Shown here: one piece after another, positions 2,175 through 47,924 of the stretch
Layout: every line of letters begins with the position of its first letter
How positions within the stretch are numbered: the first letter of the stretch is position 1
Source: Mobula hypostoma
Lineage: Eukaryota
Direction of reading: 5' to 3'
Assembly (NCBI RefSeq): GCF_963921235.1
Contig: NC_086097.1
Span: 92,940,001 to 93,004,000 of the forward strand
Length of the DNA stretch: 64,000 bases
Notes under the pieces: model-generated
Databases searched by the model: none
What the model was told of the DNA's origin: nothing
Seen by the model: the letters and a program-made list of their open reading frames with translations, nothing else
Made by a program: the position numbers and the translations under genes

Positions 2175-3425
2175 TTTAAAAAATCTTTTTATTGAATAAG
2201 TATACAAAAAAGGTAAGCCATATAAACATTAATACAATGTTAAAGTATAATAAAATTCCAAAAGGTATCAATACCAAAAAAAAATACTACAAACAATGTA
2301 ATTTAAACATAAGAAACCAAGATAACATAATAGTATACTAAATTTTATATATATCAATGGAAAAAAAAAGAAAAAAAAACCCCAAAAAAAAACCCACCGT
2401 GCAACTAACTAAAAGCAAAGCAAAGCAATGGGCTAACTTGAAACCAAACAGAGTTAAACTTAAAATCACGTCCTCAATCCCGACCTCCATTAAAAACAGT
2501 GAAAAAAAACAAGAAGGGTAAATATTACATTAAATGAAAATATCGAATAAAAGGTCCCCAAATCTGTTCAAATTTAAATGAAGAATCATAAAGGTTACTT
2601 CTAATTTTCTCCAAGTTCAAACATAAAATCGTCTGAGAAAACCAAAAAAAGGTAGTTGGAGCATTAAGCTCTTTCCAATGTTGTAAAATACATCTTTTCG
2701 CCATTAAAGTAAGAAATGCAATCATTCTACGGACTGAAGGGGAAAGATTACTAGAAATTTTAGGTAGTCCAAAGATAGCAGTAATAGGGTGAGGAGAGAT
2801 ATCTATATTTAATACCTTAGAAATAATATTGAAAATATCTCTCCAAAAAGTTTCCAAAGTAGGGCAAGACCAAAACATATGAGTTAAAGAGGCTATCTGC
2901 CCCGAACATCTATCACAGAAAGGATTAATATGCGAGTAAAAACGCGCTAACTTATCTTTGGACATATGTGCTCTATGAACCACTTTAAATTGAATTAGGG
3001 AATGTTTAGCACAAATAGAGGAAGTATTAACTAATTGTAAAATCTGCCCCCAATCATCCACAGAAATGGTAAGCCCCAATTCCTGTTCCCAATCTACCCT
3101 AATCTTATCAAATGGAGCTTTCCTAAGTTTCATAATAATATTATAAATCATAGTCGATGCACCTTTCTGACATGGATTGAGGTTAATTATCGAATCTAAA
3201 ATATATGTAGGAGGAAGCATTGGAAAGGAAGAAAGTATAGTACTTAGGAAATTTCTAACTTGTAAATATCTAAAAAAATGTATTCTTGATAAGTTATATT
3301 TATTAGATAATTGTTCAAAAGACATAAGGGAACCATCTAAAAATAAATCCAAAAACCGTAAAATACCCTTAGTCTTCCAAGTTTGAAAAGCGCGATCCGT
3401 AAAAGAGGGAGGAAAAAATATGTTA
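2175..3425 (-). mobile_element. 5'-truncated L1-clade LINE with A-rich tail and 13-bp TSD
   Basis: TSD gattgtgtctttt at 2162-2174 and 3426-3438; AATAAA and A-rich tail on the minus strand; ORF2 C-terminal coding region. Confidence 0.93.
2525..3352 (-). pseudogene. L1 ORF2 C-terminal fragment with CCHC (zf-RVT-like) zinc knuckle, uninterrupted for 275 aa
   Basis: Motifs FFRYLQVR, LIQFKVVHRAH and CDRC...SLTHMFWSC are typical of fish L1 ORF2. Confidence 0.9.
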
Positions 3426-3591
3426 GATTGTGTCTTTTAAGAGACTCCTGGATAGGTACATGGAGCTCAAAAAAAGTAGAGTGCTACGGGTAACTCAAGG
3501 TAATTTCTAAAGTAAGTACATGTTCGGCACAGCATTGTGAGCCGAAGGGCCTATATTGTACTGTAGGTTTTCTATGTTTCCATAAGTAATG

Positions 3592-6446: not shown

Positions 6447-7800
6447 TCGTTAAGATCAAAGAACTGATTGTGGACTTCAGAAACGGTAAGACGAGCAAAC
6501 ACACACCGGTCCTCATAGAGGGATCAGAAATGGAAAGAGTGAGCAGTTTCAAGTTCCTGCATGTCAGTATCTCTGAGGATCTATTCTCGACCCAACATAT
6601 TGATGCTTCTACAAAGAAGGCACGACAGCAGCTCTATTTCATTCAGAATTTGAGAAGATTTGGTCCTGTGTGTCACCAAAAATATTTTACAGACGTACTG
6701 TGGAGAACATTTAAACTGGCTACATCACCGTCTGGTATGAAGTGTGTGTGTGGGGGCAGGGTGCTACAGCACAGGATTAAAGTAAGTTTCAGAGAGTCAA
6801 GGAGCAATGACTCAAAAAGGCAGTGTCCATCGCTAAGGAGCCCCAACACCCAGGTGTTGCTTCCATCAGGGAGGAGAGACCCGAGCCAAAAGGCACACAC
6901 TCAATGATTCAGGAACAGCTACTTCCCCTCTGCCATCTGATTTCTCAATGGACATTGAACCCATGAACACTACCTCACTACTTTTTTTTCTTGTTCTAGC
7001 ACTCGTTATTTAATTTAACTGTTATACAATATATATTTACTGTAATTCACAGTTTTTTCTCTATTATGCATTTCATTATACTGCTGCCACAAAGTCCACA
7101 AATATCATGATGGAGGATTACAAATACCTGTGGATACGAATTGACAATCAACTGGACTGGTCAAAGAACACTGAGGCTGTCTACAAGAAGGGTCAGAGCC
7201 GTCTCTATTTCCTGAGGAGACTGAGATCCTTTAACATCTGCCGGACGATGCTGAGCATGTTCTACAAGTCTGTGATGGCCAGTGCTATCAAGTTTGCTGT
7301 TGTGTGCTGGGGCAGCAAGCTGAGGGTAGCAGACACCAACAGAATCAACAAACTCATTCGTAAGGCCAGTGATGTTGTGGGGATGGAACTGGACTCTCTC
7401 ACGGTGGTGTCTGAAAAGAGGATGCTGTCTAAGTTGCATGCCATCTTGGACAATGTCTCCCATCCACTACATAATGTACTGGTTGGGCAGAGTAGTACAT
7501 TCAGCCAGAGACTCATTCCACCGAGATGCAACACAGAGCATCAAAGGAAGTCATTCCTGCCTGTGGCCATCAAACTTTACAACTCCTCCCTTGGAGGGTC
7601 AGACACCCTGAGCCAATAGGCTGGTCCTGGATTTATTTCCTGGCATAATTTACATATTACTATTTAACTATTTATGGTTTTATTACTATTTAATTATTTA
7701 TGGTGCAACTGTAATGAAAACTAATTTCCCCCGGGATCAATAAAGTATGACTATGACTATATGACTATGACATATGCCAGTGATATTAAACCTGATTCTT
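6447..7800 (+). mobile_element. Rex1/Babar-type LINE 3' fragment (host of the nested insertion)
   Basis: KELIVDFR...ERVSSFKFL...KKARQQLYF. The tail catatgccagtgatattaaacctgattct resumes at about 7770. Confidence 0.8.
7108..7770 (+). mobile_element. Younger Rex1/Babar-type LINE 3' fragment with (TATGAC)n tail
   Basis: Open 170-aa frame YKYL...KKGQSRLYFLRRLRSF...HPLH...SFLPVAIKLYN; AATAAA followed by tatgac repeats. Confidence 0.88.
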
Positions 7801-19594: not shown

Positions 19595-22192
19595 AAGGAA
19601 GAGCTAGTAAGAGATTTGAAAGTGGGATGGGGAGGGGGAGATCTGAAATGATAGGAGAAGACAGGAGGGGGAGGGATGGAGCCAAGAGCTGGACAGGTGA
19701 TAGGCAAAGGGGATATGAGAGGACCATGGGATCTAGGGAGAAAGAAAGGGGGAAGGGGGAAGCCCAGAGGATGGGCAAGGAATATAGTGAGAGGACAGAG
19801 GGAGAAAAAGGAGAGAGAGAAAAAGAAAAAAATATATATATATAATAAATAAATAATGATGGGGTACGACGGGGAGGAGGGGCATTAACGGAAGTTAGAG
19901 AAGTCAATGTTCATGCCATCAAGTTGGAGGCTACCCAGACAGAATATAAGGTGTTGTTCCTCCAACATGAGTGTGGCTTTATCTTGACAGCAGAGGAGGC
20001 CATGGATAGACATATCAGAATGGGAATGGGACGTGGAATTAAAATGTGTGGCCACTGGGAGATCCTGCTTTCTCTGGTGGACAGAGCGTAGGTGTTCAGC
20101 AAAGCGGTCTCCCAATCTGCGTCGGGTCTCACCAATATATAGAAGGCCACATCGGGAGCACCGGACGCAGTATATCACCCCAGCCGACTCACAGGTGAAG
20201 TGTCGCCTCACCTGGAAGGACTGTCTGGGGCCCTGAATGGTGGTGAGGGAGGAAGTGTAAGGGCATGTGTAGCGCTTGTTCCACTTACAAGGATAAGTAC
20301 CGGGAGGGAGATCGGTGGGGAGGGATGGGGGGACGAATGGACAAGGGAGTCGTGTAGGGAGCGATCCCTGTGGAAAGCAGAAAGTGGGGGGGGGGGGAGG
20401 AAAATATGTGCTTAGTGGTGGGATCCTGTTGGAGGTGGTGGAATATCGGAGAATTATATGTTGGACCCGGAGGCTGGTGGGGTGGTAGGTGAGGACCAGG
20501 GGAACCCTATTCCTAGTGGGGTGGCGGGAGAATGGAGTGAGAGCAGATGTGCGTGAAATGGGGGAGATGCGTTTGAGAGCAGAGTTGATGGTGGAGGAAG
20601 GGAAGCCTCTTTCTTTAAAAAAGGAAAACATCTCCTTCGTCCTGGAATGAAAAGACTCATCCTGAGAGCAGACGTGGCAGAGACAGAGGAATTTGCGAGA
20701 AGGGGATGGCATTTTTGCAAGAGACAGGGTGAGAAGAGGAATAGTCCAGATAGCTGTGAGAGTCTGTAGGCTTATAGTAGACATCAGTAGATAAGCTGTC
20801 TCCAGAGATAGAGACAGAAAGATCTAGAAAGGATCAGAAATGGACCAGGTAAACTTGAGGGCAGGGTGAAAGTTGGAGCCAAAGTTAATAAAGTCAATGA
20901 GCTCAGCATGTGTGCAGGAAGCAGCGCCAATGCAGTCGTCGATGTAGTGAGGAAAAGTGGGGGACAGATACCAGTATAGGTTTGGAACATGGATTGTTCC
21001 ACAAAGCCAATGAAAAGGCAGGCTATCTGGACTATTCCTCTTCTCACCCTGTCTCTTGCAAAAATGCTATCCCCTTCTCGCAATTCCTCCGTCTCTGCCG
21101 CATCTGCTCTCAGGAGGAGGCTTTTCATTCCAGGACAAAAGAGATGTCCTCCTTTTTTAAAGAAAGGGGCTTCCCTTCCTCCACCATCAACTCTGCTCTC
21201 AAACACATCTCTCCCATTTCACGCACATCTGCTCTCACCTCATCTTCCCGTCACCCCACTAGGAATAGGGTTCCCCTGGTCCTCACCTACCACCCCACCA
21301 GCCTTGGGGTCCAACATATAATTCTCTGTAACTTCTGCCACCTCCAACGGGATCCCACCACTAAGCACATATTTTCCTCCCCTCCCCACTTTCTGCTTTC
21401 CGCAGGGATCGCTCCCTATTCGACTCCCTTGTCCATTCGTCCCCCACATCCCTCCCCACCAATCTCCTTCCTGGCACTTATCCTTGTAAGCGGAACAAGT
21501 GTTACACATGCCCTTACACTTCCTCCCTTACCACCATTCAGGGCCCCAGACAGTCCTTCCAGGTGAGGCAACACTTCACCTGTGAGTCGGCTGGGGTGAT
21601 ATACTGCGTCCAGTGCTCCTGATGTGGCCTTCTATATATTGGCGAGACCCGACGCAGACTGGGAGACTGCTTTGCTGAACACCTACGCTCTGTCCACCAG
21701 AGAAAGCAGGATCTCCCAGTGGCCACACATTTTAATTCCACATCCCATTCCCATTCTGACATGTCTATCCACGGCCTCCTCTACTGTAAAGATGAAGCCA
21801 CACTCAGGTTGGAGGAGCAACACCTTATATTCCGTCTGGGTAGCCTCCAACCTGATGGCATGAACATTTACTTCTCTAATTTCCGTTAATGCCCCTTCTC
21901 CCCCTCATACCCCATCGTTATTTATTTATTTATTTATTATATATTTTTTTCTTTTTCTCTCTCTCCTTTTTCTCCCTCTGTCCCTCTCACTATATCCCTT
22001 GCCCATCCTCTGGGTTTCCCCCCCGCCCCGCTTGTCTTTCTCCCCGGACCTCCTGTCCCATGATCCTCTCATATCCCCTTTGCCAATCACCTGTCCAGCT
22101 CTTGGCTCCATCCCTCCCCCTCCTGTCTTCTCCTATCATTTCAGATCTCCCCCTCCCCCTCCCACTTTCAAATCTCTTACTAGCTCTTCTTT

Positions 22193-37844: not shown

Positions 37845-38610
37845 CCCCCTCCTGGCACGCATCCATGCAAACGGCCCAAGTGCTATGCCTGCCCAGATAC
37901 CTCTTTGCTCACCTCCATTCAGGGCTCAAAACAATCCTTCCAGGTGAGGTCACACTTCACCAGTGAATCTACTGCGGTCGTCCATCGTGTTCAATGCTCC
38001 TGATGAGGCCTCCTCTACATTGGTGAGACCCTTTGTAAATTGGGGATCATTTTATTGAGCACCTCCACATCATCCACAACAACCAGGACCTACCAGTAGC
38101 CAAACATTTTAATTCCAGTTCCCATTCTGTTCCTGTTGCAACGTGTCAGTCCACAGCCTCCTCTTGTGCCAAGATGAGGCTACCCTCAGGATGGAGGAGC
38201 AATACCTTATATTTGGCCTGGGTAGCCTCTAACCTGATGGCATGAATATCAATTCCTCCTTCCGGTAAACAAATTCCTCCCCCCTTCTTTTATTCATCAC
38301 TCTGACCTTTTACCTCTTCTCATCTGCCTGGGTCCTCTCCTCCTTCCCTTTCTCTTATGGTCCACTCACCTTTCCTATCAGATTCCTTCTTTTCCAGCCC
38401 TTGACCTTTCCTACCCACCTGGCTTCACCTTTCACCTTCCAACTAGCCTCATTCCCATTCTCTTTTTATTCTGGCATCTCCCCCCCCCCCCCGCCCCATT
38501 CCTGAAGAACGGTCTCGGCCCAAAATGTCAGCTATCTATTGATTTCTATAGATGTGGCCTGGCCTGCTGAGTTCCTCCAGGATTTTGTGTGTGGATTTCC
38601 AGCCATCTTG
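37845..38610 (+). mobile_element. Older PLE GIY-YIG and 3' repeat fragment
   Basis: PPGTHPCKRPKCYAC...QSFQVRSHFT; decayed hammerhead ctgaagaacggtctcggcccaaaatgtc at about 38502. Confidence 0.85.
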
Positions 38611-38800
38611 GTTTAAGATTGCCCTGAAAGCAGTTCAGAGTCACTTGAACGAATAGAGATATCACACTTCAAACTGCTGAAAGCTTAGTGCCCACTCCTG
38701 CACCAGTTAGCGGTGTTGAAAGAAAGTAAATGAAAAGAACTTGAAATTTCAAACTTCCGCTCAATCCACCGGAGTCTGTCTTCACATGCTGGGATAGACA

Positions 38801-39936
38801 ACTCCATCTCCGTCTCCGAGCCTACTTCTTCGGCAAGGACTCTTCCACCCCCACCGATGACCCCCTCTCCCGTCTTCAACCCTCCTCTTCTTCATGGACA
38901 CCCTGCTCTGGTCTTCTGCCTGCTCTGGATCTCTTTATCGCTAATTGCCGACGGGACATCAACCATCTCGACTTCACTTCACCCTGACCCCATTCCAACC
39001 TCACTCCTTCGGAACACTCTGCTCTCCACTCCCTCCGCACTAATCCTAACCTTATTATTAAAACCACCGATAAGGGGGGTGCTGTTGTAGTCTGGCGTAC
39101 TGACCTCTACCTTGCCGAGGCACAGCGACAACTCGCGGATACCTCCTCTTATTCTCCCTATCTCACATGCCCTTACACTTCCTCCCTTACCACCATTCAG
39201 GGCCCCAGACAGTCCTTCCAGGTGAGGCGACACTTCACCTGTGAGTCGGCTGTGGTGATATACTGCGTCCGGTGCTCCCGATGTGGCCTTCTATATGTTG
39301 GCGAGACCCGACGCAGACTGGGAGATCGTTTTGCTGAACACCTACACTCTGTCCGCCAGAGAAAGCAGGATCTCCCAGTGGCCACACATTTTAATTCCAC
39401 ATCCCATTCCCATTCTGATACGTCTATCCACGGCCTCCTCTACTGTAAAGATGAAGCCACACTCAGGTTGGAGGAACAACACCTTATATTCCGTCTGGGT
39501 AGCCTCCAACCTGATGGCATGAACATCGACTTCTCTAACTTCCGCTAAGGTCCCACCTCCCCCTCGTACCCCATCTGTTACTCATTTTTATGCACACATT
39601 CTTTCTCTCACTCTCCTTTTTCTCCCTCTGTCCCTCTGAATATACCTCTTGCCCATCCTCTGGGTCAACCCCCCCCCCACCGTCTTTCTTCCCGGACCTC
39701 CTGTCCCATGATCCTCTCGTATCCCTTTTGCCTATCACCTGTCCAGCTCTCGGCTCTATCCCTCCCCCTCCTGTCTTCTCCTATCATTTTGCATCTCCCC
39801 CTCCCCCTCCAACTTTCAAATCCCTTACTCTTCCTTCAGTTAGTCCTGACGAAGGGTCTCGGCCTGAAACGTCGACTGCACCTCTTCCTATAGATGCTGC
39901 TTGGCCTGCTGCGTTCACCAGCAACTTTGATGTGTG
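38801..39936 (+). mobile_element. Composite PLE: N-terminal DKG region (38801-39154) joined to GIY-YIG and 3' repeat (39167-39936), RT core missing
   Basis: RLRAYFF...NLTPSE...LIIKTTDKGGAVVVW...QLADTSSY, then VIYCVRCSRCGLLYVGET. Confidence 0.9.
39837..39878 (+). ncRNA. Minimal type I hammerhead ribozyme
   Basis: agtc-CTGACGA-A-gggtctcggcct-GAAA-CGTC-gact. Confidence 0.8.
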
Positions 39937-39971
39937 TCCCTATCTCACTGAGGGTTTGAGACCCGTCGGCT

Positions 39972-40157
39972 ACCCTCACCTGGTTTAGCCGGCTTGTCGA
40001 AGCCGTTGCCCGGGGTGTGGCCGCTGTCGCATGCATACAGCTATGGGGAGCCACAGGTGAGAGCTGAGTGCCAGATGGGGACCAAAGGTGGACTAACCGC
40101 CTTGAAAAGGACGCAACATATTCCCCCACCAGAGATACTACCCCTCCCTGACACCCC
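39972..40157 (-). ncRNA. HDV-like self-cleaving ribozyme with long J1/2 and expanded L3
   Basis: P1 GGGGUGU/ACACCCC, P2 CUCACCUG/CAGGUGAG, P3 GGC/GCC, L3 beginning UCC, GGGCAAC, P4 GGCUU-CGAC-AAGCC, J4/2 GGCUAA, all in HDV order. Confidence 0.8.
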
Positions 40158-40567
40158 ATACACCCCATACATACTGTACACAAAAAGGACAGATTTGCAG
40201 TGACACTGGGAATGAACAGGAGAGTGGGACTAATTGGATAGCTCTTTCAGACAGCCAGTGTTGGTGTGATGATGTTCATCTGCACTGCACAATTCTATGA
40301 CCTTTAAAATCTTTCATCTGTTATTATAAACGATTCTGTTGACCTATAGATTTATTTTATGCTATTTTAGGGTATTAACATTTAGAAGTATCTGTGATCT
40401 ATCTCTTGATGTGGTGTGATATAGAAAGGGGCTATGTTGGAGCACATTTCAGAGACAGAGAGGATTTCCTGGCAGTCCGAGTGCTAATTGCTTCCTTGAT
40501 CAACGCTGTTTGTGACTTAACAGGAATATTTCCACCTCCACATTCTGAGGGAGTTCTGTGGATTCAG

Positions 40568-44966: not shown

Positions 44967-46650
44967 CATAGAAACTACAGCACAGAAACAGGCCTTTTGG
45001 CCCTTCTTGGCTGTGCCGAACCATTTTCTGCCTAGTCCCACTGACCTGCACACGGACCATATCCCTCCATACACCTCCCATCCATGTATCTGTCCAATTT
45101 ATTCTTAAATGTTAAAAAAGAACCCTCATTTACCACCTCGTCTGGCAGCTCATTCCATACTCCCACCACTCTCTGTGTGAAGAAGCCCCCACTAATGTTC
45201 CCTTTAACCTTTTCCCCCCTCACCCTTAACCCATGTCCTCTGGTTTTTTTCTCCCCTTGCCTCAGTGGAAAAAAGCCTGCTTGCATTCACTCTATCTATA
45301 CCCATCATAATTTTATATATCTCTATCAAATCTCCCCTCATTCTTCTTCGCTCCAGGGAATAAAGTCCTAACCTATTCAATCTTTCTTTGTAACTGAGAT
45401 TCTCAAGTCCTGGCAACATCCTTGTAAACCTTCTCTGCACTCTTTCAACCTTATTTATATCCTTCCTGTAATTTGGTGACCAAAACTAAACACAATACTC
45501 CAGATTCGGCCTCACCAATGCCTTATACAACCTCATCATAACATTCCAGCTCTTATACTCAATACTTTGATTAATAAAGGCCAATGTATCAAAAGCTCTC
45601 TTTACGACCCTATCTACCTGTGACGCCACTTTTAGGGAATTTTGTATCTGTATTCCCAGATCCCTCTGTTTCACTGCACTCCTCAGTGCCTTACCATTAA
45701 CCCTGTATGTTCTACCTTGGTTTGTCCTTCCAACGTGCAATACCTCATACTTGTCTGTATTAAACTCCATCTGCTATTTTTCAGCCCATTTTTCCAGCTG
45801 GTCCAAGTCCCTCTGCAGGCTCTGAAAACCTTCCTCACTGTCTACTACACCTCCAATCTTTGTATCATCAGCAAATTTGCTGATCCAATTTACCACATTA
45901 TCATCCAGATCATTGATGTAGATGACAAATAACAATGAACCCAGCACTGATCCCTGTGGCACACCACTAGTCACAAGCCTCCACTCGGAGAAGCAATTCT
46001 CTACTACCACTCTTTGGCTTCTTCCATTGAGCCAATGTCTAATCCAATTTACCACCTCTCCATGTATACCTGGCGAATGAATTTTCCTAACTAACCTCCC
46101 ATGCGGGACCTTGTCAAAGGCCTTACAGAAGTCCATGTAGACAATATCCACTGCCTTCCCTTCATCCACTTTCCTGGTAACCTCCTCGAAAAACTCCAAT
46201 AGATTGGTCAAACATGACCTACCACGCACAAAGCCATGTTGACTCTCCCTAATAAGTCCCTGTCTATCCAAATGCTTGTAGATTCTGTCTCTTAGTACTC
46301 CCTCCAATAACTTACCTACTACCGGTGTTAAATTTACTGGCCTATAATTTCCCGGATTACTTTTCGATCCTTTTTTAAACAACGGAACAACATGAGCCAC
46401 TCTCCAATCCTCCGGCACCTCACCTGTAGACAGCGACATTTTAAATATTTCTGCCAGGGCTCCTGCAATTTCAACACTAGTCTCCTTCAAGGTCCGAGGG
46501 AACACCCTGTCAGGTCGCGGGGAGTTATCCACTTTAATTTTCCTCAAGACAGCAAGGACCCCCTCCTTTTCGATCTGTACAGTTTCCATGATCTCACTAC
46601 TTGTTTCCCTTAATTCCATAGACTTCATGCCAGTTTCCTTAGTAAATACA
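44967..46650 (-). mobile_element. Relatively well-preserved 5'-truncated CR1-type LINE
   Basis: 284-aa frame 45774-46628 with GNYRPV, QHGF, DFCKAFDKVPH, GVPQGSVLG, KFADDTK. Stop after WAEK; downstream parts continue. Confidence 0.95.
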
Positions 46651-47924
46651 TTTGATTGAGGTTGTTATTCTATTCTGCATTATTGAGTATGCCTGCAAAG
46701 AGAGTGAACCTTACTGGAAAATGTAAATGCACACATTGTATTTTCAAAATGTAAATGCACATATTGTATTTTCTACAGTATTTGCTATGATACCACTGCT
46801 AGCTCATAGAAGGTATTCACTATGCACCCGTGACTTTTGACCTGTTCACTATTAATTCATGAGAGAACTAGAATGAAATCAAGTAGAAAGATAACGGTGG
46901 TGGGTAAGGTGATGAAATATGTGGCAGTATATCGATGCAAGATTAATTAAGAAGTAACTGTGGTTAGGGATGAGAAGACATATGGTCTAAAATGTAAACT
47001 AGGACATAATTAAGTTGGGGAGTAAAACAATAGTGGAAAGTCAAGAGCGGATATATTGATGATATGTAATCACAGGCCGACTGGAGATGATAATGTAGCT
47101 AAGAGGAAAATTGCTATAAAAAAAATGCGATGTACAAGGATCGGCGGGCAATCAGCGACTAGCTCACTGATTGTCTCAGCTTTGATTTGCAAATTAAAGT
47201 TTAAAACTTCTTGAAGAATTTTCTGCGTCTCCTTGCCGTTTGTGAGAAACGAGAAACCACGACAACCTCGGGGTTGTATAGGCTGACACATATGTACGTT
47301 GATAATAAATTTACTTTGAACTTTGAGGGACACATGCACATGGGATCGGTTTGGTAGATACTGTGGTGGGCATGAATGAGCTGAGCCTGTTTCCATGCTG
47401 TGATACTGTTTGCCAGGGCTTCAAGTTATCCAACAGGGATGATGGAAGGTGGCAACTGAAAATCCTTCTGAGGGTGTGTTATTAAGTTGGTGAACTGTAC
47501 ACTAGCTCAGACACTCACATGTGGCTAGGGTTTGACTGGGTCCCCAGTCTGTGAGGGACGGTGGTGGACTCAGGGACAGCATTGAAGCTCAGATGACAGA
47601 GGCCACCCAAGTTCTGCTTGGCCAGGTGCTAACTCTGAGCTCCGGCAACTTCTCCACTGCAGCAAGCAATGCACAGGCACTGGCCGGTCTTCTAGGTACA
47701 CTGACCACAATGGCGGGGAACTGTAGGAATCTGCCTCAGGCGTGAGTGGGAGAATGCGGCAAGGCGTGTCCAATGTGTCTTGCATCCAATGAGTGTCCAC
47801 CTTCCTTGAGGTGTCTGACCAGAGTTATACAGGGCCTTGGTGTGACTGCACCTGAAAGGCTGAATGCAACCCTAATCTCCATAGCCAAAAACAAATTATA
47901 TACCTGCGAAAGACAGAGGGCTGC

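Follow-up and report, generated by a model that had tools for sequence, protein, structure and literature searches.

The first ~195 nt of an abundant, short retroelement in the genome of Mobula hypostoma probably form an HDV-like ribozyme variant, real or recently real, that would define the 5′ end of this non-autonomous element; we hold this reading with reasonable confidence. As an initial annotation of the DNA had proposed, an HDV-type layout heads a short, non-coding, non-autonomous retroelement, with a hairpin at the place where L3 normally closes, and this is the case for the majority sequences of both families, A and B, that are described below. The copy at issue lies in a 64,000-nt stretch of contig NC_086097.1 (positions 92,940,001 to 93,004,000; here called the window), where comparison with other copies by blastn and nhmmer identifies it as the minus-strand head of a ~560-bp non-coding non-LTR retroelement that we name family A. 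Window coordinates below refer to features on the minus strand unless marked (+).

On this strand the HDV order P1-J1/2-P2-P3-L3-P3′-P1′-P1.1-P4-J4/2-P2′, a nested double pseudoknot, is present, and the motifs that the initial annotation had listed are all in place. In element numbering (window coordinate = 40167 minus element position), P1 occupies nt 1-7/149-155, P2 103-113/185-195, P3 115-117/146-148, P1.1 119-120/156-157, and P4 162-167/172-177, with the putative catalytic cytosine at C179. In the window, P2 had been read as CTCACCTG/CAGGTGAG, which is indeed present and can be extended to 11 pairs, 40064-40054 with 39982-39972 (5′ strand GCTCTCACCTG, 40054-40064; 3′ strand CAGGTGAGGGT, 39972-39982; helix 6 of the pairing model, with 97.9% of cells paired). 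P3 joins GGC at 40052-40050 to GCC at 40021-40019 (helix 7), and the 3′ strand of P1, ACACCCC, follows at 40018-40012 (helix 1). TCC opens L3, and the GG at 40011-40010, which precedes GCAA, would pair with the L3 CC at 40048-40047 as P1.1 (helix 8). The P4 hairpin CGGCTT CGAC AAGCCG (CGGCTTCGACAAGCCG) fills 40005-39990 (helix 10), and J4/2, GCTAAAC at 39989-39983, places the putative catalytic C at 39988.

How well are the key residues of this layout kept from copy to copy? Over 67 aligned copies, the P1.1 residues C119 and G157 are present in all 67, C120 in 64, and G156 in 51, the losses of G156 being G-to-A changes; the putative catalytic C in J4/2 is found in 45/45 A copies and 21/22 B copies. 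We take the antigenomic HDV ribozyme to have a U at the first R of J4/2. The published HDV-like descriptor, as excerpted from PMC6326823, requires G1-Y, P1.1 CC/GG, the U, C, and G of L3, and CRRA in J4/2; here J4/2 reads CUAA, with the C and two A's present and a U as the first R. The +1 G is paired with a pyrimidine (G-C in 50 and G-U in 8 of 66 distinct rows), and the G-C first pair, which the initial annotation had considered unusual, falls within the G1-Y rule of that same excerpt (PMC6326823).

L3 proper is 8 nt long (40042-40049) and reads TCCCCATA in the window copy and TCCCCGTA in the family majority; the majorities of family A (UCCCCGUA) and family B (UCCAAGUA) both have a conserved U, CC, C, and G, and the L3 guanine, G123, is kept in 36/45 A copies and 22/22 B copies. 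Between L3 and P3′ lies an extra hairpin at 40041-40023, with a GCTGT/ACAGC stem and a 9-nt loop (helix 9; 96.9% of cells paired), followed by a single G (G40022). The initial annotation had drawn all of this as a 28-nt L3 with its own stem; the stem exists, but the region resolves into a canonical 8-nt L3, a 19-nt hairpin, and one G. In neither family, then, is a short L3 closed directly by the 3-bp P3, and the oddity is best described as an inserted helix that follows a canonical loop, at the 3′ end of L3, and precedes P3′. In a limited literature search, no description came up of an inserted helix at L3/P3′ in an HDV-like ribozyme, or of any such ribozyme at the head of a vertebrate SINE. 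A helix beside the active site at the 3′ end of L3 could block catalysis.

Within the loop of the extra hairpin, family A keeps the 6-nt palindrome GCATGC (40027-40032), as does family B once CpG decay is taken into account; through this palindrome, two RNAs could pair loop to loop. Another drawing of the region, with the inner hairpin as P3 and UGUGGCU/GGCCACA as P1, was rejected: it has no CC/GG P1.1, and the 5′ end that it predicts, nt 111, is seen in no copy.

Which of two identical sequences supplies the 5′ strand of P1? GGGGTGT is doubled, at 40166-40160 and at 40157-40151, 9 nt apart. The initial annotation had recognized GGGGTGT at 40157-40151 and ACACCCC at 40018-40012, both of which are present as sequence, and had placed cleavage 5′ of G40157, at what it took to be the 5′ end of the element. 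Family copies begin 9 nt upstream of that site, at the first GGGGTGT (G40166); full-length copies carry both repeats, and no aligned copy begins at the second (40157, nt 10). The expectation that 5′ ends would pile up at GGGGTGT is thus borne out at the first repeat, with none at the repeat that had been chosen. Our script, which looked for exact repeats of ≥7 nt shared by the 5′ flank and the sequence beyond the tail, found target-site duplications in 25 of 45 rows labelled A and 7 of 33 labelled B; the A/B labelling behind these counts is rough, and they may include a few chance 7-nt matches at a distance from the tail. In the A rows, the offset of the duplication end from the first G is 0 nt in 11, +1/+2 in 9, and -1/-2 in 5. 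Because copies and target-site duplications abut the first G, P1 is better assigned to the first repeat (5′ strand at 40160-40166, where a descriptor match at nt 1 also falls) if a ribozyme defines the 5′ end, with a predicted cut 5′ of G40166. A fixed transcription start could account for an exact 5′ end equally well.

We therefore weighed the original proposal, an active ribozyme with the second GGGGUGU (40157-40151) as P1 and a cut 5′ of G40157, against these ends, and we regard it as very unlikely. The second repeat, being identical to the first, pairs equally well with ACACCCC (duplex energy of -11.8 kcal/mol for both), and our descriptor accepts P1 at nt 10. Against this stand the starts of the aligned copies, none at nt 10, and the duplications that abut the first repeat; moreover, cutting at nt 10 would yield copies without the first repeat. 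The second repeat also has another partner: in both the MFE and centroid folds it is the 5′ strand of the basal helix of J1/2, where the changes between A and B preserve pairing.

That helix is the base of a structured J1/2 ("P1.2") domain at 40066-40156 (helices 2-5), which, in both the MFE and the centroid fold, is closed immediately downstream of P1 and immediately upstream of P2. A self-structured J1/2 of about 87 nt had been claimed at this locus; the folds do contain a structured domain, but it is ~90 nt long and takes in the repeat previously assigned to P1. Compensatory changes between A and B support it, with pairing kept through GC to AU, AU to GC, AU to GU, and UG to UA; two J1/2 pairs are unpaired in B. 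Such a domain has a precedent, for a stable J1/2 helix activates large HDV-like ribozymes, according to an excerpt of PMC4908430. The large HDV-like ribozyme drz-Agam-2-1 has a structured J1/2 domain with helix P1.2, and J1/2 of family A is likewise structured, whereas the family A domain, at ~90 nt, has a basal strand that repeats the P1 sequence, and RF01788 gives no match.

Family A is a discrete and numerous element. A 241-nt query returned at least 2567 first-look candidates in the 3.48-Gb genome, the best 40 of which were scored at 94-100% identity, and the alignment of 29 other copies with their flanks delimits a unit of ~560 bp. Its 3′ end is an 11-bp stem-loop followed by GATGGACGAACAA(CAA)n, and stops in all forward frames leave no ORF. 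A tail-anchored search of the genome gave, among the matches listed, only full-length or 5′-truncated copies of the short element, at 29 further loci: 21 are full length, and 8 are truncated, at nt 36, 74 (with an inverted 5′ piece), 98, 231, 231, 348, 357, and 396. The element thus has the features of a SINE or SIDE, namely, target-site duplications of 7-14 nt, a simple-repeat tail, 5′ truncations, and no ORF, and its insertion is not site-specific. Truncations, tails, and duplications are the signature of LINE-mediated target-primed reverse transcription.

Individual truncated copies have features of their own. In one (L055:1044-1590), element nt 1-46 are inverted and joined to nt 74-570, a twin-priming-like 5′ inversion of the kind typical of LINE-mediated insertion. 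Two others (L037 and L056) are independent insertions, each with its own target-site duplication, that begin at the identical base, nt 231 (TCTATCCC). This start lies ~35 nt beyond the 3′ end of the ribozyme fold (nt 195), and the site of the Penelope-like insertion in the window copy (element nt 213-228) is ≤20 nt away. The shared start could mean that the RNA has a second discrete end, or that reverse transcriptase stops at the folded head.

Which LINE would supply the reverse transcriptase? No LINE partner sharing the 3′ end was found among the 29 tail-anchored loci or in the flanks of the 90 loci collected, the best 40 of hundreds to thousands of candidates having been scored. The trinucleotide repeats of the tail fit RTE but do not single it out. 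In the window, the tail motif matches only in repeats with Penelope-like ORFs and is absent from the RVT_1, zf-RVT, and ALKBH8_N-like retroelement remnants. Of these, the RVT_1 reverse-transcriptase ORF (45774-46664; E = 5e-27) belongs to another retroelement remnant, and the zf-RVT and ALKBH8_N-like ORFs are among further remnants at 2525-3436 and 7014-7619 (+).

The family A copy in the window is itself probably catalytically dead. Element positions 1-230, the head and the first bases of the body, lie at 39937-40166 (blastn, nhmmer, and alignment), and positions 213-275 of the same copy lie at 38756-38820; between them sits a ~1.1-kb Penelope-like insertion (38811-39936, +), and the remaining ~285 bp of the split copy are absent from the window. 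The insertion is a 5′-truncated fragment flanked by a ~8-10-bp duplication of element sequence (GAGATAGGGA/GAGATGGA), with a GIY-YIG ORF at 38988-39548 (+; Pfam E = 4e-4, under the curated cut-off). The window copy also has A at 40044 in place of the conserved L3 guanine (the HDV G25 equivalent), as 1 of 9 A copies with A at this position, and on that account it fails our descriptor. The equivalent L3 G-to-A change abolished cleavage in the Nasonia R2 ribozyme (PMC3774820), and a C. briggsae ribozyme with the equivalent change had no observable cleavage, as excerpted from PMC13635239. We judge this copy probably inactive because of the G-to-A change at the L3 guanine, the interruption by the insertion, and the loss of the 3′ half.

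Two further observations concern the Penelope-like fragment. An ORF similar to its GIY-YIG ORF lies at 19885-20823. On the plus strand at 39846-39875, within the fragment, CTGACGA, a short G+C-rich stretch, and GAAAC GTCGAC follow one another, with a weaker copy near 38502-38530 (+); this arrangement appears to resemble the minimal hammerhead motif reported for Penelope-like elements. Rfam gave no call for the motif at 39846-39875, either in a scan of the window or in one of 39700-40500 with E values of up to 10.

A comparison between lineages is possible through family B, which was first seen as one 79%-identical relative at a single locus. A search with it as query returned at least 4981 first-look candidates, of which the best 40 were scored at 76-82% identity to the query. 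Family B is ~537 bp long, is homologous to A along its length, and ends in a (CCA)n tail; it is an older sister family of A. An nhmmer head profile run against the window and all 90 loci for more distant lineages matched only A and B copies, and what looked like a third relative, in L061, proved to be an internally deleted A copy. Contigs of sequencing runs with eight different coded organism labels contain near-identical words of the element; a comparison with four runs placed both A-type and B-type sequences in runs with other organism labels, and an "organism H" contig differs from the element at 4/254 positions. The family is evidently shared among several related taxa. A variant head was seen at L005:1628 and in single contigs of runs X15 and X13, which have different organism labels; the X15/X13 form is without the 5′ half of the extra hairpin and without J1.1/4 and the 5′ strand of P4, and it is possibly a further degenerate lineage.

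Between the A and B majorities, identity is far higher in the head than in the body: 16/17 columns are identical in the doubled repeat, 78/96 in J1/2, 78/88 in the core from P2 to P2′, 27/40 just downstream of the core, and 180/325 in the body, where the tail end is poorly aligned. Based on this difference, the head is evidently under stronger constraint than the rest of the element. From 89 nhmmer rows, 68 were left after duplicate loci and partial matches were dropped, and 67 were aligned, one A copy with an internal deletion being left out. On these 67 copies, 95.2% of the 4206 cells in the full pseudoknotted model pair, compared with 35-48% when partners are slid by 1-3 columns. In P4, pairing is kept from A to B through GC to CG at pair 2 and UA to UG at pair 5. 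P1, P2, P3, and the extra hairpin show no covariation; with only two lineages compared, these helices are invariant between A and B, and they are therefore neither supported nor contradicted by this measure.

Could the whole layout be a chance pattern, that is, a G+C-rich repeat that can be drawn as an HDV fold and has no function? Some of the evidence leans this way: the MFE shows no excess stability relative to shuffles (z = -0.10), the nested HDV-like helix set lies 8 kcal/mol above the MFE, and our descriptor was composed after the candidate had been seen and is not blind. That descriptor specifies G1, a 7-bp P1, J1/2 of up to 120 nt, P2 of ≥6 bp, and a 3-bp P3, then L3 as UCCNNG with 0-25 nt before P3′, GG, P4 of ≥4 bp, C-N-R-A, and P2′. 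In dinucleotide shuffles it matched twice in 34,304,000 bases, both times with a minimal 6-bp P2, and by extrapolation such a lax descriptor is expected to match somewhere in a 3.5-Gb genome by chance, indeed hundreds of times. An intact family copy is matched with P1 at element nt 1 or nt 10 and nowhere else, and both strands of the window gave no other match. For each family the majority sequence passes with P1 at nt 1 or 10 only (0 matches on the reverse strands), and 25/45 A copies and 5/22 B copies still pass individually. A match at nt 1 of a 560-nt element, with 7 of 7 P1 pairs Watson-Crick and 11 P2 pairs compared with 6 in both shuffle matches, is not expected by chance, and the head is conserved well above the body in two lineages, with compensatory changes. 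We give the chance reading hardly any credence, less than any other reading considered here.

A more substantial alternative is that the head is a conserved, structured, non-catalytic module, such as an internal promoter, a platform for binding reverse transcriptase or a host protein, or an RNA stability element, with the 5′ end set by a fixed transcription start; its HDV-like appearance would then be the relic of a ribozyme disabled by the L3 insertion, or a coincidence. Taken as one joint reading, this is unlikely, and several observations fit it. Conservation of the head between A and B points to function, not to catalysis; P1, P2, and P3 offer no covariation; and the insertion beside the active-site loop is undescribed in the limited literature search. 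There is also no Rfam match: at gathering thresholds no family was called in the whole window, and with E values of up to 10 the region 39700-40500 and an intact copy (L005) gave no HDV-type match and only noise (an lncRNA and a miRNA family), while RF00094 and RF01788, run against the whole genome, matched none of the 84 and 34 candidates scored, respectively. Promoter function at heads of this kind is known, in that the 5′ 77 nt of L1Tc are both promoter and ribozyme, according to an excerpt of PMC3383444.

On the other side, the L3 and P1.1 residues fixed by the published descriptor, together with G1, are kept in both majorities, whereas their neighbours (L3 nt 4-5 and J1.1/4) have changed. 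P1 begins exactly at nt 1, and the chance rate of our descriptor is ~6 per 100 million bases, both of which count against a non-catalytic module. So does the apparent lack of a promoter, since Rfam and tRNA scans detected no small-RNA head (tRNA, 5S, 7SL, or snRNA) and no pol III boxes, the tRNA scan of three loci giving none. We favor an HDV-like ribozyme variant, present or recent, at the 5′ end of the element.

How would such a ribozyme serve the element? We propose that the element, which is without a recognizable small-RNA promoter head, would for this reason be read through from neighbouring transcription. Its RNA would fold into the nested double pseudoknot, with the catalytic C179 in J4/2, and the 90-nt helical J1/2 domain, with the second GGGGUGU repeat at its base, would hold P1 and P2 together. 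The ribozyme would then cut 5′ of G1 and free an RNA with an exact 5′ end. This RNA would then be the template for target-primed reverse transcription by a LINE enzyme that begins at the 3′ stem-loop and (CAA)n tail. For an element with no small-RNA head and no ORF, a 5′ processing device makes sense, as in the R2 SIDEs and NARTc.

Comparison with known systems sharpens both what is familiar and what is not. The 5′ HDV-like ribozymes of R2, L1Tc, baggins, and RTE have, like the head described here, the nested double-pseudoknot order (PMC6765202, PMC3774820, and PMC3185411); their cut site coincides with the start of both P1 and the element, which they are proposed to release from a co-transcript (PMC6765202), as we propose here. 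Unlike those ribozymes, the present candidate has a 19-nt hairpin and a G between L3 and P3′ and a duplicated P1 strand; its host is a ~560-bp non-coding element in a 3.5-Gb eukaryote genome, and it has no match to an Rfam model. Also comparable are the R2 SIDEs of Drosophila and NARTc of Trypanosoma cruzi, which are short and non-coding, carry a 5′ HDV-like ribozyme, and have a 3′ end used by a LINE reverse transcriptase (excerpts of PMC3414825, PMC3383444, and PMC6765202), the last being what we propose for family A. For R2 SIDEs and NARTc, an autonomous partner with the same head is known, whereas here none was found among the 90 loci; the lack of site specificity in its insertion here is a further difference from both. 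Classical SINEs (headed by tRNA, 5S, 7SL, or snRNA) are likewise short, non-coding, and abundant, with target-site duplications and a LINE-type tail, but family A is without a detected small-RNA head or pol III boxes.

We speculate further that the family majority sequence might represent a new structural subclass of HDV-like ribozyme that is active and in which the extra helix between L3 and P3′, beside the active site, is functional; we advance this idea tentatively and consider it possible but doubtful. The extra helix might let RNAs pair with one another through the palindromic GCAUGC of its loop, or might offer a partner's reverse transcriptase a handle. Searches for HDV-like ribozymes, whether by descriptor or by covariance model, assume a short L3 that P3 closes. 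Should L3/P3′ prove able to accommodate a hairpin, genuine ribozymes are escaping these searches, and the active-site loop calls for broader structural rules. The natural G-to-A variant and the two sister families provide ready-made controls for studies of cleavage.

If the new subclass is real, current models are blind to a class of ribozyme with thousands of copies in large animal genomes. The finding would place an abundant member alongside the R2 SIDEs and NARTc, the few non-autonomous elements known to be headed by a ribozyme, and would support the idea that promoter-less retroelements rely on self-cleavage for their 5′ ends.
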